A stretch of 42,394 nt of DNA. It comes from Octopus sinensis. Taxonomy: Eukaryota. This document shows positions 393 through 42,394 of this stretch, piece after piece; the first letter of the stretch is position 1, and each line of letters opens with the position of its first letter. A program made the position numbers and the translations under genes. The notes beneath the pieces were generated by a model. That model made no database searches. It saw nothing but the letters and a program-made list of their open reading frames with translations, and was not told where the DNA came from. Location of the stretch: assembly GCF_006345805.1 (NCBI RefSeq), contig NW_021835262.1, forward strand, positions 1 to 42,394, in the 5' to 3' direction.

Positions 393-1720
393 AGCCTCTA
401 TACTGTTATCCCTCACCACGAAGGACTGCAGGCCCTTCGACACTTTCTTGACCTCCGCTCTAACCCCTGTACCTGACACCTCCACACTCATTCGTCTGGC
501 CGAACTTGTCCTTACTCTGAACTGCTTCTCGTTCGCGGGGCGAGTTCTACCATCAGGTCTCGGGAGTGGCCATGGGAACGCGAATGGGCCCCAACTATGC
601 TAACCTGTTCGTTGGCTATGTTGAGGCCCAAATATTCTCTATTTCACTGGTCCCACTCCTGAACTATATGGTCGTTACATTGACGACATTATCGGTGCCA
701 CCTCACTCTCCCGCGAACATCTAGATTCCTTCCTCTCTTTCGTCCAATCTTTCCATCCAGCCCTCCACTTCACTTCCACTATCTCCAACACCTCTGTCTC
801 CTTTCCCTCGACATTTCGGTTAGCATTCTTCACTCCACTCTTACCACCTCCATTCACTACAAACACACAGACTCACACTCATACCTCAACTTCTCTTCCT
901 CCCACCCAGACACACCAAGCTTTCCATCCCCTATTCCCATTCCTCCTCCGTCTACGTAGGCTCTGTAGTGACGACCATGACTTTGAGACTCAGTCTCAAC
1001 GTATGGCTCATCCCACTTCACCTACGTGGATACCCCCTCACCACTATCCACACCGCCCTTGCCAAGCACGGTCCGTGACCGTGTATCTGCTTTCTCTCTC
1101 CCCGAACCCGCCCTGTAGTCTCCCGCCTCCCTTTTCCTCTCACTTACCACCCCACGACCCTACGTCTCCAACGCACCATTCTCGAGCTTTCCGTCATCTC
1201 CAGTCCGACCCGTCCACTTCACACCTCTTCCCTAACCGACCCCCTCCCTCTTCAAACGAGCCCACAACCTTCGAGACCTTTGGTCCATAGCTCCTTCCCT
1301 GACCCTACCTCCCAACCCGGCTCGTTCCCCTGCTCCCGCCCACGTTGCCGCACTTGCCCTTACCTCTCCAACACCACCCGCCTCACTAGCACCCACCATC
1401 GACCCTATCCCATCATCCACTCCTTCACCTGCACCTCCAGCAATATTATCTATTGCGTCTCTTGCTCTCTCTGCTATTCCTTGTACATCGGACCAACGGG
1501 ACGCCGCTTGGCTGACCGGTTCGCGGAACACCTTCGTGACATCCACCTTGCGAACGACACACCGGTCTCACGCCATTTTCCGCTCCACCGGTCACTCCTT
1601 GCAACACCTATCTGTGTTCGGTTTGTCCTTACCCAGAGGCCTTCCGGATTCCCGTTTGCGCCGTGAACAGGAATTAATCTTCTCTCTTCGCTCTTATACG
1701 CCATTTGGTCTCAACTCTCC
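393..1720 (+). pseudogene. PLE reverse transcriptase-GIY-YIG polyprotein, frameshifted
   Basis: RT motifs at ~393-900 and GIY-YIG at ~1320-1715 (ending REQELIFSLRSYTPFGLN) are split over several frames. Confidence 0.9.
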
Positions 1721-2085
1721 CCCCTCCTCATCTAACCCCCCCCCCCCCTCCCTCACCTATCTTCCCCTCCCGACCCCCCTACTTCTTCAGTCCTTCATCC
1801 TTTCACCCCTACTTCTCCCCTTCCCTTCTTCCCTCTTTCTCCTCCCTCCTTCCCTCTTCCCTCTGCTCCCTCACTCCCCTCTTCTCTCTATCCACCCCTC
1901 CCCCTCTTTCCTCCTTCATCCCCCTCCTCCTCCCCTTCTTCTCCCCCTCCTCTCTCTCCCCTCTCCCCCTCCTCTCCTCTTCCCCTCTCTTTTCCCCTCC
2001 CCTTCTCCCCCCTCTCTCTCATCCCCCCCCCCTCTTCTCCTCACTACACCACACGACTTTACACATCACATCATATATGATGTGC

Positions 2086-2430
2086 CATACTAATACATAC
2101 ACCAACTAATACATACTAATACGTACTAATACATACTACATACATACACCAACCCTATACATACACACGTCCAGACCCTCATACGCACTTATACTCTCTC
2201 ACACACACACACACACTTATACATACTAATACGTACTAATACATACTAATACATACTAATACATACACCAACCCCATACAAACGCACGTCCAGACCTATC
2301 CTACGCACTAATACTCTCTCATACACACACACCACACATACACACACACCACACCTTATACATACTAATCATACTAATACATACACCAACCCTATACATA
2401 CACACGTCCAGACCCCTCCTACGCACTATA
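2086..2430 (+). repeat. About three imperfect ~125-bp repeats in the PLE 3' UTR
   Basis: CATACACCAACCC(T/C)ATACA..C(A/G)CACGTCCAGACC recurs near 2143, 2263 and 2380. Confidence 0.7.
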
Positions 2431-2611
2431 GCTGGTCATTCAACCCTATTATCAACCCTATTATCTCCCCTATTTCTTATTTCGCTCTCGCGTCTCATGT
2501 TTGATCTTTGACCTCTGGCCGAAATCAGATCGCCATGTTGATTCGTTAGTTACTGCACGCATTTTTTTTCTCTCCTTCTTTCTGTGTTTTTTTTTCTCTC
2601 TGTGTATCATT

Positions 2612-2645
2612 CTGTTGAAGAGCGTAGGCTCGAAACGTTAAAGAC
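2612..2645 (+). ncRNA. Degenerate minimal hammerhead-like motif at the PLE 3' end
   Basis: CTGTTGAA-GAGC gtag GCTC-GAAA-CGTTA. Helix II hairpin and GAAAC are present, the core is a variant, and helix I is not evident. Confidence 0.5.
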
Positions 2646-2749
2646 TTGTTTTATTTATATTTCCTGAGCGCCATACGAATACAATTGTTTGTTTGTTTTC
2701 CACCTGCCTTCGTCTTTTGTCTATTTTCATAAAGCTTCCCGTTATCATA

Positions 2750-2784
<35 letters not shown>

Positions 2785-29266: not shown

Positions 29267-29724
29267 TGAAAGAAACAGACATAAACTAAAAGAGAGGGAC
29301 TATTACAAAGGGTGAGAGAGAATATGTGAGAGAGCAAGCGATATAGAGAATGTAAAAAAAGAGGGAGAAGAGAGAAATAAACAGAGAGATAAAAGGCAGA
29401 GAATCGGTTGAAAACTGCAGAAGTTTTTAGAGAAAAACCTGTGTAAGACACCGTTATTCTCGGTTTCTCGCTTTACGCGGGAGCTCTAGGCCAATAGTTA
29501 TAGTGCATAACCATCCTTGGCACATACGTAATGTGAGTGTAAAGTTTGGTGAAAATCGGTTGAAAACTGTAAAAATGCATAGCTACTACACACACACACA
29601 CACACATGCACACAGACACACACACACACGCGCGCGCGCAGAATTCTTTGTTTTATATAGTTATATATACATGTACGCACGCGCACGAACACACAGATGC
29701 GCGCGCGCGCACACACACACACAC

Positions 29725-30670
29725 AAGGAACCAAGGTGATTGTAAGTATCTGATGGAATTTTCCTACCCCCAACAAAAATAACCCAAAATCACAGGCTTT
29801 TGTAATTTCGAGGAGGAAAATCCCTTTGGGGGCCTGAATTCAGACTTGTTTAACTTTACAGAATTCCTCTCGGAGGCTTTGTATATTTGTGTGTGTGTGT
29901 GTGTGTGTGTGTGTCTGTGTGTGTGTGTGCGTCTGTGTGTCCGTGTGCGTGTGTGTGTGTCCGTATGCGTGTGTGTGTGTGTATAGCACAAGGTCAGAAG
30001 GTTTTTTATATATTCTTCGCAGAATGATCTTATCGTTCGGATTTTCTGGATTTTCATTTACACAGATACTTGACATCACACTACTTCGTAATTGATAACC
30101 TCGTGGACTGATAGCCGTGTCCGAAGAGGTGCTTACAGAGGTAACTGCACAGTTCTCTGAATCCATATTTCATACTACACCACACACACACACAAGGAAC
30201 CAGGTGATTGTAAGTATCTGATGGAATTTTCCTACCCCCAACAAAAATAACCCAAAATCACAGGCTTTTGTAATTTCGAGGAGGAAAATCCCTTTGGGGG
30301 CCTGAATTCAGACTTGTTTAACTTTACAGAATTCCTCTCGGAGGCTTTGTATATTTGTGTGTGTGTGTGTGTGGTGTGTGTGTGTCTGTGTGTGTGTGTG
30401 CGTCTGTGTGTCCGTGTGCGTGTGTGTGTGTCCGTATGCGTGTGTGTGTGTGTATAGCACAAGGTCAGAAGGTTTTTTATATATTCTTCGCAGAATGATC
30501 TTATCGTTCGGATTTTCTGGATTTTCATTTACACAGATACTTGACATCACACTACTTCGTAATTGATAACCTCGTGGACTGATAGCCGTGTCCGAAGAGG
30601 TGCTTACAGAGGTAACTGCACAGTTCTCTGAATCCATATTTCATACTACACCACACACACACACACACAC
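29725..30670. repeat. Near-identical ~470-bp tandem duplication bounded by (CA)n
   Basis: AAGGAACCA(A)GGTGATTGTAAG at ~29725 and ~30194; the same ORFs are duplicated in the track. Confidence 0.9.
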
Positions 30671-33159: not shown

Positions 33160-34570
33160 CATTCAAATTCTGCCGAGGTCGACTTTGCCTTTCATCCCTT
33201 GGGGGGAGGGGGGTCGATGAAATGAGTAACAGTGAAACAATTGGGTCGATGTAATCAACTTAACCCCTCCCCCAAATTTCAGGCCTTAAAGGATTATTAC
33301 AGATTACATTAAGGCGGCGAGCTGGCAGAAACGTTAGCACGCTGGGCGAAATGCGTAGCCGTATTTCGTCTGCCGTTACGTTCTGAGTTCAAATTCCGTC
33401 GAGGTCGACTTGCCTTTCATCCTTTCGGGGTCGATAAATTAAGTACCAGTTACGCACTGTGGTCGATGTAATCGACTTGATCCGTTTGTCTGTTCTTGTT
33501 TCTCCTCTCTGTGTTTAGCTCCTTGTGGGTAGTAACGAAATAGGTATTTTGTCTGCCGCTACGTTCTGAGTTCAAATTCCGCCGAGGTCGACTTTGCCTT
33601 TCATCCTTTCGGGGTCGATTAAATAAGTACCAGTTACGCACTGGGGTCGATATAATCGAATTAATCCGTTTGTCTGTCCTTGTTTGTCCTCTCTGTGTTT
33701 AGCCCCTTGTGGGTAGTAAAGAAGTAGGTATTATGTTCTGAGTTCAAATTCCGCCGAGGTCGACTTTGCCTTTCATCCTTTCGGGGTCTATAAGTTAAGT
33801 AGCAGTCGCGCTCTGGGGTCGATCTAATCGACTGGCTCCCTCCCCAAAAATTTCGAGCCTTGTGCCTAGAGTAGAAAATATTTTTAAGGCGTTGAGCTGG
33901 CAGAAACGTTAGCATGCCGGGCGAAATGCTTTGAGATATTTCGTCTGTCTTTACGTTGCGAGTTCAAATTCCGCGAAGGTCGACTTTGACTTTCATCCTT
34001 TCAGGGTCGATAAATTAAGTACCAGTCGCGCACTGAGGTCGATGTAATCGACTTAATCCCTTTGTCTGTCCTAGCTTGTCCCCTCTATGTTTATCCCCCT
34101 GTGGGCAATAAAGATATAAATATAGGTTACAAAAAGGAAGTGGGCTGGCAAAAATCGTTCACTCACCAGACGAAAAGGTTTACATTCGTCCATCTTTACA
34201 TTCTGAATCAAAATTCTGTCGAGATCGACTTTACCTTTGATTCTTTTGGGGTCGATGAAGTAAGTACCAGCTGAGCAATAGGGTAGGTGTAATCGACAAC
34301 CCCTTCCCACAAATTGCAGGCCTTGTACCTAAAGTAGAATGAATTATTAGAGGTTAGAAACATAAGGTGCTGACAGTATCGTTTGAACGTCGGAGAAAAT
34401 ATCTCTCTTCCTGCTGTCTAGGTTCAGAGTTCAAGTCCCGCCGAGATCAACTATACCTTCCATCTCCCCGTGTTCGATAAAATGAAGTACCAGCCAAGCA
34501 CTAAGGTCAATGGCATCGACTAAATTTCTCACCTCAAAATTACTAGCCTCGTGCCCAAAGTGGATACTCG
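33160..34570 (+). mobile_element. Cluster of concatenated Nin-domain SINEs
   Basis: About seven copies of TTCAAATTCCGCCGAGGTCGACTTTGCCTTTCATCCTTTCGGGGTCGAT..AGTACCAG. Confidence 0.8.
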
Positions 34571-36839: not shown

Positions 36840-36884
<45 letters not shown>

Positions 36885-37141
36885 TTTAACAATTAAGGAT
36901 AATCTCTTAATAAGGGATCTTAACAAGAAATTATCGGGTAGCTAGCGTGAAAACCTCGTAAAAGAAAAGAATTCGAAAATAATTTTTTTCTTTTGAACAA
37001 ATTAATTATATCTATATTGTATAGAGGGCATTATTACACATAAATGCCTCACACTAGGAGGGACAAAGTCATTACTACCAAAATTATACTATCATACCCA
37101 ATGCAGTTTTTTCAAAGCAAGACATTTAAAAAAATGAATTT

Positions 37142-37200
37142 AGTTCTGTATCACCGTGATTTCACATTCAACTTTACGTCTAATGATCGTCAGCAGAACT
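37142..37200 (-). ncRNA. Type I hammerhead ribozyme (unit 1, motif intact)
   Basis: AGTTCTG-CTGACGA-TCATTAGACGTAAAGTTGAATGT-GAAA-TCACGGTGA-TA-CAGAACT; helix I 7 bp, cleavage triplet AUA. Confidence 0.82.
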
Positions 37201-37616
37201 GATTCTGATACATCATAAATAAACTACCAACCTTACGTAGCGAAGACAAACAGACAATGCTCACTCCGGCAAGCACATGGAATGTTTATAAATCAATATA
37301 CCCGTAAATGGCGGCTTTTTTTACGAACTGCATGTCGGTTAATGAAAAGTATTTCGAATAAGTTTAACAATTAAGGATAATCTCTTAATAAGGGATCTTA
37401 ACAAGAAATTATCGGGTAGCTAGCGTGAAAACCTCGTAAAAAAAGAATTCGAAAATAATTTTTTTCTTTTGAACAAATTAATTATATCTTATTGTATAGA
37501 GGGCATTATTACACATAAATGCCTCACACTAGGAGGGACAAGTCATTACTACCAATTATACCTAATCATACCCAAATGCAGTTTTTTCAAAGCAAGACAT
37601 TTAAAAAACTGAATTT

Positions 37617-37672
37617 AGTTCTGTATCACCGTGATTTCACATCACTTTACGTCTAATGATCGTCAGCAGACT
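37617..37672 (-). ncRNA. Hammerhead copy, unit 2 (small deletions)
   Basis: Core intact; single-base deletions in helices I and II. Confidence 0.6.
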
Positions 37673-38094
37673 GATTCTGAATACATCATAAATAAACTAC
37701 CAACCTTACGTAGCGAAGACAAACGACAACTGCTCACTCCGGCCAAGCACATGGAATTTTTATAAATCATATATCCGGTAAATGGCGGGCTTTTTTACGA
37801 ACTGCATGTCGGGTAATGAAAAGTATTTCGGAATAAGTTTAACAATTAAGGATAATCTCTTAATAAGGGATCTTAACAAGAAATTATCGGGTAGCTAGCG
37901 TGAAAACCTCGTAAAAGAAAAGAATTCGAAAATAATTTTTTTCTTTTGAACAAATTAATTATATCTATATTGGAAGAGGGCATTATTACACATAAATGCC
38001 TCACACTAGGAGGGACAAAGTCATACTACCAAAATTATACTAATCATACCCAAATGCAGTTTTTTCAAAGCAAGACATTTAAAAAACTGAATTT

Positions 38095-38152
38095 AGTTCT
38101 GTATCACCTGATTTCACATTCAACTTTACGTCTAATGATCGTCAGCAGAACT
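38095..38152 (-). ncRNA. Hammerhead copy, unit 3
   Basis: Core intact; one-base deletion in helix III. Confidence 0.65.
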
Positions 38153-38573
38153 GATTCTGATACATCATAAATAAACTACCAACCTTACGTAGCGAAGACA
38201 AACAGACAACTGCTCACTCCGGCCAAGCACATGGAATGTTTATAAATCATATATCCGGTAAATGGCGGGCTTTTTTACGAACTGCATGTCGGGTAATGAA
38301 AAGTATTTCGGAATAAGTTTAACAATTAAGGATAATCTCTTAATAAGGGATCTTAACAAGAAATTATCGGGTAGCTAGCTTGAAAACCTCGTAAAAGAAA
38401 AGAATCGAAAATAATTTTTTTCTTTTGAACAAATTAATTATATCTATATTGTATAGAGGGCATATTACACATAAATGCCTCACACTAGGAGGGACAAGTC
38501 ATTACTACCAAAATTATACTAATCATACCCAAATGCAGTTTTTTCAAAGCAAGACATTTAAAAAACTGAATTT

Positions 38574-38631
38574 AGTTCTGTATCACCGTGATTTCCATTC
38601 AACTTTACGTCTAATGATCGTCAGCAGAACT
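38574..38631 (-). ncRNA. Hammerhead copy, unit 4
   Basis: One-base deletion just before GAAA. Confidence 0.6.
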
Positions 38632-39044
38632 GATTCTGAATACATCATAATAACTACCAACCTTACGTAGCGAAGACAAACAGACAACTGCTCACTCCGG
38701 CCAAGCACATGAATGTTTATAAATCATATATCCGGTAAATGGCGGGCTTTTTTACGAACTGCATGTCGGGTAATGAAAAGTTTTCGGAATAAGTTTAACA
38801 ATTAAGGATAATCTCTTAATAGGGATCTTAACAAGAAATTATCGGGTAGCTAGCGTGAAAACCTCGTAAAGAGAAATTCGAAAATAATTTTTTTCTTTTA
38901 ACAAATAATTATATCTATATTGTATAGAGGGCATTATTACACATAAATGCCTCACACTAGGAGGGACAAAGTCATACTACCAAAATTATACTAATCATAC
39001 CCAATGCAGTTTTTTCAAAGCAAGACATTTAAAAAACTGAATTT

Positions 39045-39101
39045 AGTTCTGTATCACCGTGATTTCACATTCAACTTTACGTCTATTGATCGTCCAGAAC
39101 T
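39045..39101 (-). ncRNA. Hammerhead copy, unit 5 (core damaged)
   Basis: The CT of CTGACGA is missing. Confidence 0.45.
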
Positions 39102-39522
39102 GATTCTGAATACATCATAAATAAACTACCAACCTTACGTAGCGAAGACAAACAGACAACTGCTCACTCCGGCCAAGCACATGGAATGTTTATAAATCAT
39201 ATATCCGGTAAATGGCGGGCTTTTTTACGAACTGCATGTCGGGTAAGAAAAGTATTTCGGAATAAGTTTAACATTAAGGATAATCTCTTAATAAGGGATC
39301 TTAACAAGAAATTATCGGGTAGCTAGCGTGAAAACCTCGTAAAAGAAAAGAATTCGAAAATAATTTTTTTCTTTTGAACAAATTAATTATATCTATAGTG
39401 TATAGAGGCATTATTACACATAAATGCCTCACACTAGGAGGGACAAAGTCATTACTACCAAAATTATACTAATCATACCCAAATGCAGTTTTTTCAAAGA
39501 AGACATTTAAAAAACTGAATTT

Positions 39523-39578
39523 AGTTCTGATCACCGGGTTTCACATTCAACTTACGTCTAATGATCGTCAGCAGAACT
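39523..39578 (-). ncRNA. Hammerhead copy, unit 6 (helix III and cleavage site altered)
   Basis: CTGACGA intact; indels and substitutions near the cleavage site. Confidence 0.5.
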
Positions 39579-39839
39579 GATTCTGAATACATCATAAATA
39601 AACTACCAACCTTACGTAGCGAAGACAAACAGACAACTGCTCACTCCGGCCAAGCAATGGAATGTTTATAAATCATATATCCGTAAATGGCGGGCTTTTT
39701 TACGAACTGCATGTCGGGTATGAAAAGTATTTCGGAATAAGTTTAACAATAAGATAATCTCTTAATAAGGGATCTTAACAAGAAATTATCGGGTAGCTAG
39801 CGTGAACCTCGTAAAAGAAAAGAATTCGAAAATAATTTA

Positions 39840-40178
39840 CGACATGCAGTTCGTAAAAAAAGCCCGCCATTTACCGGATATATATGATTTATAAACATTC
39901 CATGTGCTTGGCCGGAGTGAGCATTGTCTGTTTTTGTCTTCGCTACGTAAGGTTGGTAGTTTTATTTATGATGTTTCAGAATCAGTTCTGCTGACGATCA
40001 TTAGACGTAAAGTTGAATGTGAAATCACGGTGATACAGAACTAAATTCATTTTTTTAAATTCTTGCTTTGAAAAAACTGCATTTGGGTATGATTAGTATA
40101 ATTTTGGTAGTAATGACTTTGTCCCTCCTATGTGAGGCATTTATGTGTAATAATGCCCTCTATACAATAGATATATAA
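39840..40178 (+). repeat. Inverted partial copy (~340 bp) of the array unit
   Basis: CGACATGCAGTTCGTAAAAAAAGCCCGCC.. is the reverse complement of the unit; ends in (TA)n. Confidence 0.95.
39984..40042 (+). ncRNA. Type I hammerhead ribozyme in the inverted copy (motif intact)
   Basis: CTGACGA at 39991-39997, GAAA at 40021-40024; predicted cleavage after A40035. Confidence 0.82.
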
Positions 40179-40189
40179 TATATATATAT

Positions 40190-40226
<37 letters not shown>

Positions 40227-40251
40227 TTGTGGGTGTGTGTGTGTGGTGTTA

Positions 40252-41085
40252 TTAGCTGACGCACCCGGTAATTCCCGGGAAAGCCGGGCTTATCCCTTGG
40301 TTCTGTTGTTTCGGTAATCCAATAACAACATTACAAAGCATGTAGCCCTTAAAATGGTATTTTCTTTTGCAGAGAATACCGAATACACAGGATCTTGCTT
40401 TTATGAATACCCAAATTTTGAAGTCATTTATGTAATAACATGAATTTAGTTACTCGATAGTAAAAATTCAAATAAAGTAGTCCCGAAAAGGGCTTTAATG
40501 CGTTCCCAGAGTATATAGAACTTAGGAGGAAATACCAATACGGTATGTATACTAAAATCGTGAAGCATATTATTTAATAACAGGTTAATCAGATATGAGA
40601 TAATAACAATTCAAAGTAAATAAGTCTAAAAAGAGCTTTTGTGCATTCCCAGAGAATATTATCCTCATCGACGCTAGTGTTGGTATATTCGTGAATAAGT
40701 CACTAACCGAAATAAGTGGATCTATTGTTTAGGAAAATACTATTTACTTGTTTAAGCGTTGTATTGGATAAATTGCGAAAATAACTCAAATAGTTCAAAT
40801 ATTAAGAAATGAGCATACTCAATTTGATTTATATCAAATGATTTAGGAAAATGAATGGGTTATTTCCCTTGGCTGTTAAAATGAAATATATTAGATATAA
40901 ATAAGGATCCTTTCCAGGGGCCCTATTATCGATTTTTCAACAATCTGAGTGTGCCATGAGGTTTCCAGACATGAGTTCTATTCACGTGTCAAGTTACATC
41001 AACATCGATAAAACGATGTAGGAGGAGTTAGCTAACAACTTCACCAGCAAACCCACTGATAGAGTTTCCCACATGTAGCAGAAGA
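40252..41085 (-). mobile_element. Non-autonomous Helitron-like element
   Basis: Minus strand: 5' A|TC, 3' hairpin CCCGG gaatta CCGGG, then CTAA|T. Confidence 0.5.
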
Positions 41086-41109
41086 TATATTTGTATTATT
41101 TTTTAAAAT

Positions 41110-41328
41110 TCTTTTACTTCTTTCAATCATTTGACTGCGACCATGCTGAAGCACCGCCTTGAAAGGTTTAGTCAGACACATCAACCGCCTGTACATATTC
41201 TTAGTAAACCTTATTCTATCGGAGTCATTTGCCGAACCGCTAGCTTATGGGGTCACAGACACGCCTATAGTGATTGTCAAGCGGCAGTGGCGGCATAAAC
41301 ACAGAGCAAACACACACACACACACACA

Positions 41329-41372
<44 letters not shown>
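41110..41372 (-). mobile_element. Truncated SINE (3' half)
   Basis: Homologous to the tail of the 3960-4388 family. Confidence 0.65.
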
Positions 41373-41398
<26 letters not shown>

Positions 41399-41439
41399 CG
41401 TATATGAAAAAATGAACGACTAGTTAACAAATATCCTTT

Positions 41440-41524
41440 ATTCTCGACATATGTTTCGAAGGCTGCATATTCCTAATTCCGAAGGAATAAGGAGTACATT
41501 ATGCAGATTTCTCATCAGGAAAAT
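41440..41524 (-). ncRNA. Complete type I hammerhead ribozyme with extended helix II
   Basis: ATTTTC-CTGATGA-GAA..CTGCATA..TCCT.ATTCC ttc GGAAT.AGGA.TATGCAG..TTC-GAAA-CATATG-TC-GAGAAT; GUC cleavage site. Confidence 0.88.
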
Positions 41525-41564
41525 CAAGGAACTTATGTCGACATCAAAATGCACAAAAAACTTT

Positions 41565-41952
41565 TAGCTGACCGCTCTCAAAATTAGAAACACCACTTAC
41601 CAATGCAAAATCTCTTCTGGAACCGATGTCTACTTCTACATTGGCGCAACCTCTTCTAAATTAGCCCAAAGGATCTCCAACCATTATTCCACTTTCAGAG
41701 ATAAGAGAAAGCAACACAACACGGGGCTAAGCAATTATTCTGGCGTCTGAAGAACAAAAACACTACGTGTCAACAAGCTCGATGGTCCATTTTGTCGGTG
41801 TCCTTCCCGTTTGATAAAGGCAGAAAATTTTGTGGCATCTGTAATTCCGAACTTTTTTCATATTTTGTTTCGCCAAAGTCCCTTTAATAAATACAATCGT
41901 CGAAAGATCCTACAGGTGTTTACACTGGAAAAGACACACCTTTCACTCATAT
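41565..41952 (+). pseudogene. GIY-YIG endonuclease C-terminus of a Penelope-like element (non-Neptune type), frameshifted
   Basis: YFYIGATSSKLAQRISNHYSTFRDKRKQHNTGLS..WRLK..RWSILS..GRKFCGICNSE..LIN...RCLHW. Confidence 0.8.
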
Positions 41953-42394
41953 AATAGTGACTAATATAGATAACCCCTCGATTTCCCAAAAATTTTTGCT
42001 ATATTTCACCCCATTAGTCAAAAAGATTTACTTATATTCCCAATTACTACTCCATTCTGGCGGTGTGCCTCTCACCTCGCCCCGATTCTTTCTCCCTTTC
42101 GCTATCTACTTTCCTTTCTCTACAGTAAACATAATCGAACACACAGACACAGACCTCTCACCTCACAGCTATCAGTTTTTCTGACATCTACCCATCCACA
42201 AACACCAATCACGCATTCAGACACACACATACACACATTAAGACAGTTATATACAGTCACACACACAGGCACTCATTCATAAAGAAATCATTTAAACCCA
42301 CCATTCCTTTGACCTGCACCTCTCTACTTACTATTCTTATGCTCCCTCCTCCTACTTCGTTTGAACCCTTGACCTTTAGAACCTTCTAGATTCT

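Follow-up and report, generated by a model that had tools for sequence, protein, structure and literature searches.

The window analysed here, i.e., the whole stretch of 42,394 nucleotides of an Octopus sinensis contig (NW_021835262.1, forward strand), carries near its right end a hammerhead ribozyme motif on the minus strand. Its arm is joined head-to-head, with no spacer in between, to a piece of a PLE endonuclease on the opposite strand. The features on which the argument rests, numbered along the window, are the following:

36880-40179: neighbouring array of 6.2 units of 475 bp with minus-strand hammerheads; its inverted arm (39840-40179) has a plus-strand hammerhead, and (TA)n lies at both ends
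41310..41398: (CA)n and then (TA)n tract, the presumed insertion target, its edge ambiguous between 41399 and 41406
41399..41445, minus: 3' tail of the inverted arm, which reaches (TA)n 40-47 nt after the predicted cut, the first 20 nt being the 3' strand of helix I
41446, minus: C17, with the predicted cut 3' of it, between 41446 and 41445 (GUC site)
41454-41447, minus: helix III palindrome, ACAUAUGU
41455..41457, minus: GAA of the second core box (G12-A14), GAAA spanning 41457-41454
41458..41511, minus: helix II, 54 nt, with 3+7+4+5 pairs, internal loops of 2x2, 6x1 and 1x1, a 3-nt terminal loop and the closing pair G10.1-C11.1
41518-41512, minus: CUGAUGA, the first core box (C3-A9)
41519..41539, minus: 5' strand of helix I, with six proximal pairs and an extension with internal loops
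41535..41544: perfect 10-nt palindrome at the meeting point of the arms, the putative inversion junction
41537..41964, plus: GIY-YIG endonuclease of a Hydra-like PLE, C-terminal and truncated at its 5' end, fragmented by four or more frame breaks (six being probable), with its stop TAA at 41962-41964
41965..42394, plus: presumed 3' UTR, C/CA-rich, running off the window and putatively assigned to the element

The sequence at 41399-41539 on the minus strand is a genuine type I hammerhead motif. Both core boxes (CUGANGA and GAAA), a NUH site, three helices and an open helix I are present, and all of the conserved closing pairs are found (G10.1-C11.1, A15.1-U16.1 and C15.2-G16.2). The perfect core, the GUC site, the predicted cut between 41446 and 41445 and the 6-bp helix I (one of whose pairs is a G-U) given in the preliminary description of this DNA are thereby borne out, and the hammerhead is indeed unrelated to that of the array at the level of sequence, where local alignment stays at chance. 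A scan of both strands of the whole window with looser settings returns six motifs, one here and five in the array.

Helix II, previously taken for a multi-stem structure of 54 nt, does have that length but is not branched: it folds as one unbranched hairpin of 19 pairs interrupted by three internal loops (-15.5 kcal/mol, z -3.75), and none of 200 shuffles folds as well. Beyond its first six pairs, helix I continues between 41539-41519 and 41445-41426 and, interrupted by small internal loops, comes to about 17 pairs; 21 of 2000 shuffles of its distal 3' arm pair equally well. The 8-nt palindrome that had been proposed as helix III is present as well, but cannot close as a 4-pair hairpin in the monomer, which is left with two pairs and a tetraloop; the self-duplex of the palindrome is worth -7.0 kcal/mol and the lone hairpin +2.4 kcal/mol. 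In the energy model the active shape of the monomer takes up less than 1% of the ensemble, and a double hammerhead built by hand reaches -62.8 kcal/mol, compared with -55.4 kcal/mol for two best-folded monomers. As modelled, the helix III palindrome appears suited to cleavage in a dimer. A search for canonical pairing revealed no tertiary contact between helices I and II, the sole candidate partner of the 6-nt bulge in helix II sitting at the (TA)n edge and being unconvincing. We also observe that 41534-41541 of the minus strand is a perfect 8-nt complement of the cut-site bases 41444-41451. Going by the letters, this match between the junction and the cut site may point to an alternative fold or be left over from the formation of the junction; the pairing is not favoured in the computed folds.

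How unusual is the long helix II? By hand count it measures 54 nt here and at most 24 nt across 82 animal PLE motifs, of which 56 come from Fig. S3 of Cervera 2014 (at most 23 nt; PMC4209133) and 26 are the Hydra rows of file S2 of Craig 2021 (at most 24 nt; PMC8557442, cited here and below from the parts of it available). This 24-nt ceiling seems to be largely made by the method, because the Cervera descriptor allows a stem II of 3-7 bp and a loop of 3-10 nt, i.e., 7+10+7 = 24 nt at most (PMC4209133, available parts); the core-only search of Craig 2021 has a helix II limit of 17 nt, relaxed descriptors being used as well (PMC8557442). The latter source lists two spike-moss elements, PLE-X1_sMoe and PLE-X1_sTam, with a helix II of ~53 and ~48 nt (hand count) and flags them as deviating. 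A helix II of such size therefore has a precedent in PLEs, though not among the animal motifs compared; these two are endonuclease-less plant elements whose helix II is listed as a stem with a large loop, and they are likened to ours by the size of that helix and not by sequence.

The idea that PLE hammerheads are usually minimal ones with a tiny helix II, from which the preliminary description had started, has the matter reversed, as the tiny helix of the minimal motifs is helix III. The Cervera descriptor for the minimal type is not matched here, either in helix II (54 nt and 19 pairs) or in the second box, which consists there of 8-9 nt ending in gaaannuh, with no helix III, and here of 12 nt from GAAA to C17. 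What our motif has in common with the minimal hammerheads (PMC4209133, available parts) is the type I topology, the G10.1-C11.1 pair, occurrence on the opposite strand of truncated PLEs, and a palindromic helix III implying dimers, the dimer competence of ours being a result of the energy model only. It differs from them in the absence of the bulged base before helix II, in a helix III of 8 nt that is not minimal, and in a much longer helix I. What is new is the combination of a 54-nt helix II and a long helix I, and a Hydra-like endonuclease devoid of linker cysteines, each in a single copy. In the literature covered, which included few subscription papers, neither this octopus family nor an animal PLE with an arm of this kind was found described; the family may stand as an unnamed Penelope in the 2026 Octopus vulgaris repeat library, and motifs with a longer helix II may be listed in the supplements of Li et al. 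2026 or in Arkhipova 2017.

Homology to the endonuclease can be traced back to about 41556, and weakly to 41537. The GIY-YIG fragment expected on the plus strand is present, but its frame ends at the TAA at 41962-41964 and not at 41952, and its homologous pieces contain no in-frame stop. To call it a remnant is right as to the 5' truncation; the frame breaks, on the other hand, may be assembly errors and not decay. Copies of the array (36881-39736) differ from copy 3 by 11-15 gap columns, mostly one-base gaps, and by just 2-6 substitutions, and this excess of gaps suggests indel errors in the assembly. Near 41770-41790 another frame reads KLD, like the Octopus sinensis protein P0001, and two further compensating breaks are likely at this place.

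The main endonuclease piece matches Pfam GIY-YIG with an E of 0.0015, under the curated cut-off. P0001 was the one match among 30 candidates (80% identical over the matched stretch, E 3.8e-18), and a search of the full protein library gave eight proteins at E<=0.001. Read through with X at four breaks, the endonuclease shares 54/81, 45/86, 52/138, 28/80, 46/121 and 30/106 identities with six relatives, P0005 and P0008 being excluded from every alignment. It has a CxxC before the conserved E and a CxH after the conserved N, lacks the CCHH motif, and is followed by a stop and non-coding sequence, i.e., it occupies the C-terminal position known from Hydra PLEs; to the eye, the IWF..PF of P0001 resembles the LWF.PH/PP of the Hydra rows. 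The CxCX5C linker, however, is not there: the last two cysteine columns of the P0007 linker are K and S here (across a frame break and beside the truncation), linker cysteines are missing in all four of the closest relatives (P0001, P0002, P0003 and P0006), and P0001 has no cysteine whatsoever upstream of the domain. In P0001 and P0002 the place of the cysteine linker of Hydra elements is taken by a long Asn/Ser-rich stretch. As this linker fails and the window holds no RT for a tree, we use the term Hydra-like for the element and refrain from placing it in the Hydra clade. An assignment to the Neptune or Naiad PLEs was rejected: their endonucleases have CCHH and a CX2-5CxxC linker, that of Naiads being N-terminal (PMC8557442), whereas CCHH is absent here, the endonuclease is C-terminal, and comparison with the Neptune-type endonuclease of the same window gives an E of 0.54. 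Searches from P0003 and from alignment A1 returned no longer relatives with RT, which is weak evidence. As to the genomic context of the relatives, 308 and 117 pattern matches were obtained in genome contigs, from a collection covering no eukaryotic genome, and none was confirmed. Phage DNA gave two weak partial matches for the query (E 0.1) and solved structures three rows at chance level (E>0.6).

In the available parts of Craig 2021 (PMC8557442), the Hydra clade is characterised by CxxC and CxH around E and N, no CCHH, a CxCX5C linker, (TA)n insertion and hammerheads. The octopus element resembles it in its C-terminal GIY-YIG without CCHH, in CxxC and CxH, in insertion at (TA)n (one end is seen, and the trait is common to other clades), in a type I hammerhead near the 3' end, here that of the inverted arm, with a self-complementary helix III of four pairs, and in the inverted 5'-truncated copy that carries the hammerhead in antisense. 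It departs from Hydra elements in helix II, 54 nt as against at most 24 nt in the 26 rows; in helix III, a perfect palindrome where Hydra motifs have loops of 1-3 nt; in the missing linker cysteines; in a longer UTR; and in being without the U/U flanks of helix II that 14 of the 26 Hydra rows show (hand count). The endonuclease row of Hydra-1_Obim, from Octopus bimaculoides, lines up by eye with the motifs of the window, but its hammerhead differs, and the element of O. sinensis therefore belongs to another family.

The layout of the insertion is itself ordinary for PLEs. Inverted 5'-truncated copies are typical of these elements, and Penelope-13_HM, a Hydra family, is listed with an inverted copy and a hammerhead on each strand (both in Craig 2021, PMC8557442); opposite-strand hammerheads in a truncated PLE appear too in the legend of Fig. 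S4A of Cervera 2014 (PMC4209133). The palindrome at the meeting point of the arms is of a kind that occurs at 36 of 38821 non-microsatellite centres in the window, so that ~0.02 are expected per 25 positions. The interpretation of the hammerhead arm as the inverted 5' pLTR of a truncated PLE agrees with its place at what would be a PLE 3' end, with the truncated endonuclease on the opposite strand and with the published layout; it lacks the sense copy of the hammerhead, which is found nowhere in the window, including the 430 nt after the stop (~470 nt after CxH), and no hammerhead core was found in the presumed 3' UTR at 41965..42394. In the absence of that copy from the window, hammerhead and endonuclease are one element by inference. 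Six new Hydra consensus sequences, for comparison, have the hammerhead core within ~300 nt of CxH in every case, and run from the cut to the end over 36-47 nt in three and about 90-115 nt in the other three (hand counts; PMC8557442).

We consider it probable, although far from certain, that the locus is a single insertion of a Hydra-like PLE in the known inverted layout, with a sense hammerhead to be expected past the end of the window and a ribozyme likely to act as a dimer. The RNA of such an element would consist, towards its end, of the 3' UTR, the type I hammerhead and a short tail. Its endonuclease would cut the (TA)n tract, and both DNA ends would prime reverse transcription from the 3' end of the element. 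One copy, on the minus strand (41399-41539), would halt after ~140 nt, where helix I ends distally, while the other, on the plus strand and running rightwards from about 41537, would extend into the endonuclease; microhomology at the 10-nt palindrome would join these copies of unequal length head-to-head. The sense copy of the hammerhead, the tail and (TA)n should then follow beyond the end of the window. A mechanism for priming by both cut ends from the element's 3' end is offered by the Poseidon PLE protein, which in vitro acts on both DNA strands, nicking and extending them, and aids its hammerhead (Frangieh 2024, PMC11167929, available parts). The same two-arm layout is seen in the neighbouring array, where hammerheads occur on either strand and (TA)n borders each end.

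On its own the ribozyme is likely to be a poor cleaver, and it may work as a double hammerhead in tandem transcripts, where two palindromes would form one helix III of eight pairs according to the model, or with the assistance of a protein. A palindromic helix III and action as a dimer are standard for PLE hammerheads (PMC4209133 and PMC3088659, available parts), the minimal ones cleave weakly in assays (PMC4209133), and eight of nine Xenopus retrozyme dimers did not cleave (Li et al. 2026, 10.64898/2026.07.22.740005, available parts). The long helix II and the extended helix I may be characteristic of the family and serve to stabilise the fold, perhaps as a substitute for the usual loop-loop contact, and the antisense copy would be a by-product of insertion and not a host gene.

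Against this explanation speaks the gap after CxH, ~470 nt with no core, which exceeds the ~300 nt of the six Hydra consensuses; a long UTR does occur, as that of the Neptune-type PLE in the window measures ~880 nt. With the sense copy absent over so long a gap, a fusion of two families or a split inversion has to be weighed. A hammerhead arm contributed by another family, be it a monomer of a non-autonomous retrozyme or another PLE, and fused to the endonuclease piece through a template switch or an insertion at the same (TA)n, is unlikely but deserves some weight: the hammerhead is unlike the listed Hydra motifs, several PLE clades are drawn to (TA)n tracts, and nothing in the sequence ties the hammerhead to the UTR (51 of 60 shuffles give a duplex as good as the best one). 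Yet neither (TA)n nor a spacer separates the arms, their junction is palindromic, the arm differs from the 3' ends of the cephalopod Naiads compared, and its 12-nt motif does not occur in the available part of the Craig supplement, where line breaks could hide a match. Less credit still is due to a single RNA of the same element, split and inverted as in the twin priming of L1 biology. The hammerhead end would then be the only 3' end, the endonuclease and UTR an inverted upstream piece, and a sense copy would exist in the family consensus and not at the locus. Both arms begin at the junction, so this geometry fits equally well, as does a window devoid of a sense copy, but the array and Penelope-13_HM have a hammerhead on both arms, and the literature matches listed include no PLE study of twin priming.

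Two further doubts concern the hammerhead itself and not its partner. It is quite improbable that this copy alone has the long helix II, through a hairpin inserted in loop II or an artefact of an indel-rich assembly, the family hammerhead being ordinary: a single copy is known, and merely three pairs precede the first internal loop, but the 19 pairs are well formed (as the z-score indicates), the arm matches nothing else in the window, and one-base indel errors do not produce a 35-nt hairpin. With one copy only, covariation is absent and helix II is unproven as a family trait. The last of these readings, that the core boxes and hairpins are brought together by chance, we regard as extremely improbable. 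It could appeal to Rfam, where no hammerhead family is among the 80 matches of the window or the three of 41400-42394, and to the loose motifs that arise in 23 of 300 copies of the window shuffled in 1-kb blocks. Not one of these 300, however, holds a motif with at least six, three and four pairs in helices I, II and III, Rfam misses the hammerheads of the array likewise, and the motif sits where the end of a PLE would be.

An origin from cephalopod Naiad ends was rejected, as these differ from the hammerhead arm in the sequences compared. Non-LTR retrozymes have type I hammerheads and a proposed PLE origin (PMC7229834 and Li et al. 2026, 10.64898/2026.07.22.740005, available parts); ours is a single copy joined to an endonuclease and not a set of tandem non-coding units, whereas the neighbouring 475-bp array does fit this class.

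A PLE origin of such arrays has already been proposed (10.64898/2026.07.22.740005, available parts), and the element had been named a candidate helper for the one beside it on the ground that both abut (TA)n. This ground is weak. Contact with (TA)n does not discriminate, because the unrelated Neptune-type PLE of the window and octopus Naiads, listed with a (TA)n preference (PMC8557442), are at (TA)n as well. When the element was compared with the array unit, as had been suggested for its termini, nothing beyond chance was shared (local alignment, six of six comparisons, with 109-299 of 300 shuffles as good). The array, whose ends stop about 270 and 130 nt past the cut site, has a hammerhead in which helix II is flanked by U/U and loop III measures 1 nt. 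This hammerhead is closer to the published Hydra motifs than that of the element, which makes a helper from the Hydra clade plausible, but probably one of another family.

Two roles are considered for PLE hammerheads, processing of tandem precursors and mere passage (PMC8557442). An intact core bearing a 54-nt arm is a direct object for testing which features of the arms matter. Given the limits of 24 nt in the descriptor and 17 nt in the core-only search, and no match in Rfam, counts of PLE hammerheads may be too low. The CxCX5C linker has been proposed to guide (TA)n targeting (PMC8557442), and if a family with no linker cysteines truly targets (TA)n, the proposed link would be weakened. It is hard not to speculate further, on a reading that we hold possible but doubtful, that octopuses harbour a Hydra-like PLE branch which lost the linker and still inserts into (TA)n, where the arms made of a 54-nt helix II and a 17-pair helix I form a new distal contact or a platform for protein, as a multi-copy, family-wide class that neither Rfam nor the 24-nt descriptor would detect. 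If this were true, some of the PLE hammerheads called 'half-core' or 'absent' would need to be called anew.

Other parts of the window hold related and unrelated repeats. A Neptune-type PLE at 399-2750 (plus), 5'-truncated and frameshifted, lies between (TA)n tracts with RT motifs, a cysteine-rich linker and GIY-YIG, and its long C/CA-rich UTR ends in a minimal hammerhead near 2612-2640, with CUGUUGA as first box; the similarity of the element's UTR to this end is at chance (185 of 300 shuffles as good). No hammerhead was found in the tandem repeats at 29712-30665 (471 bp x 2, 99% matches) and 33361-33831 (184 bp x 2.6). Between the array and the hammerhead, 40250-41100 is AT-rich and contains a diverged 142-bp duplication (40402-40516 and 40544-40659, 75% identity), and the ends of this segment are presumably Helitron-like. 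The dispersed repeat at 41085-41305, of which five or more partial copies with ~70% identity lie in other parts of the window, is probably a SINE-like element.
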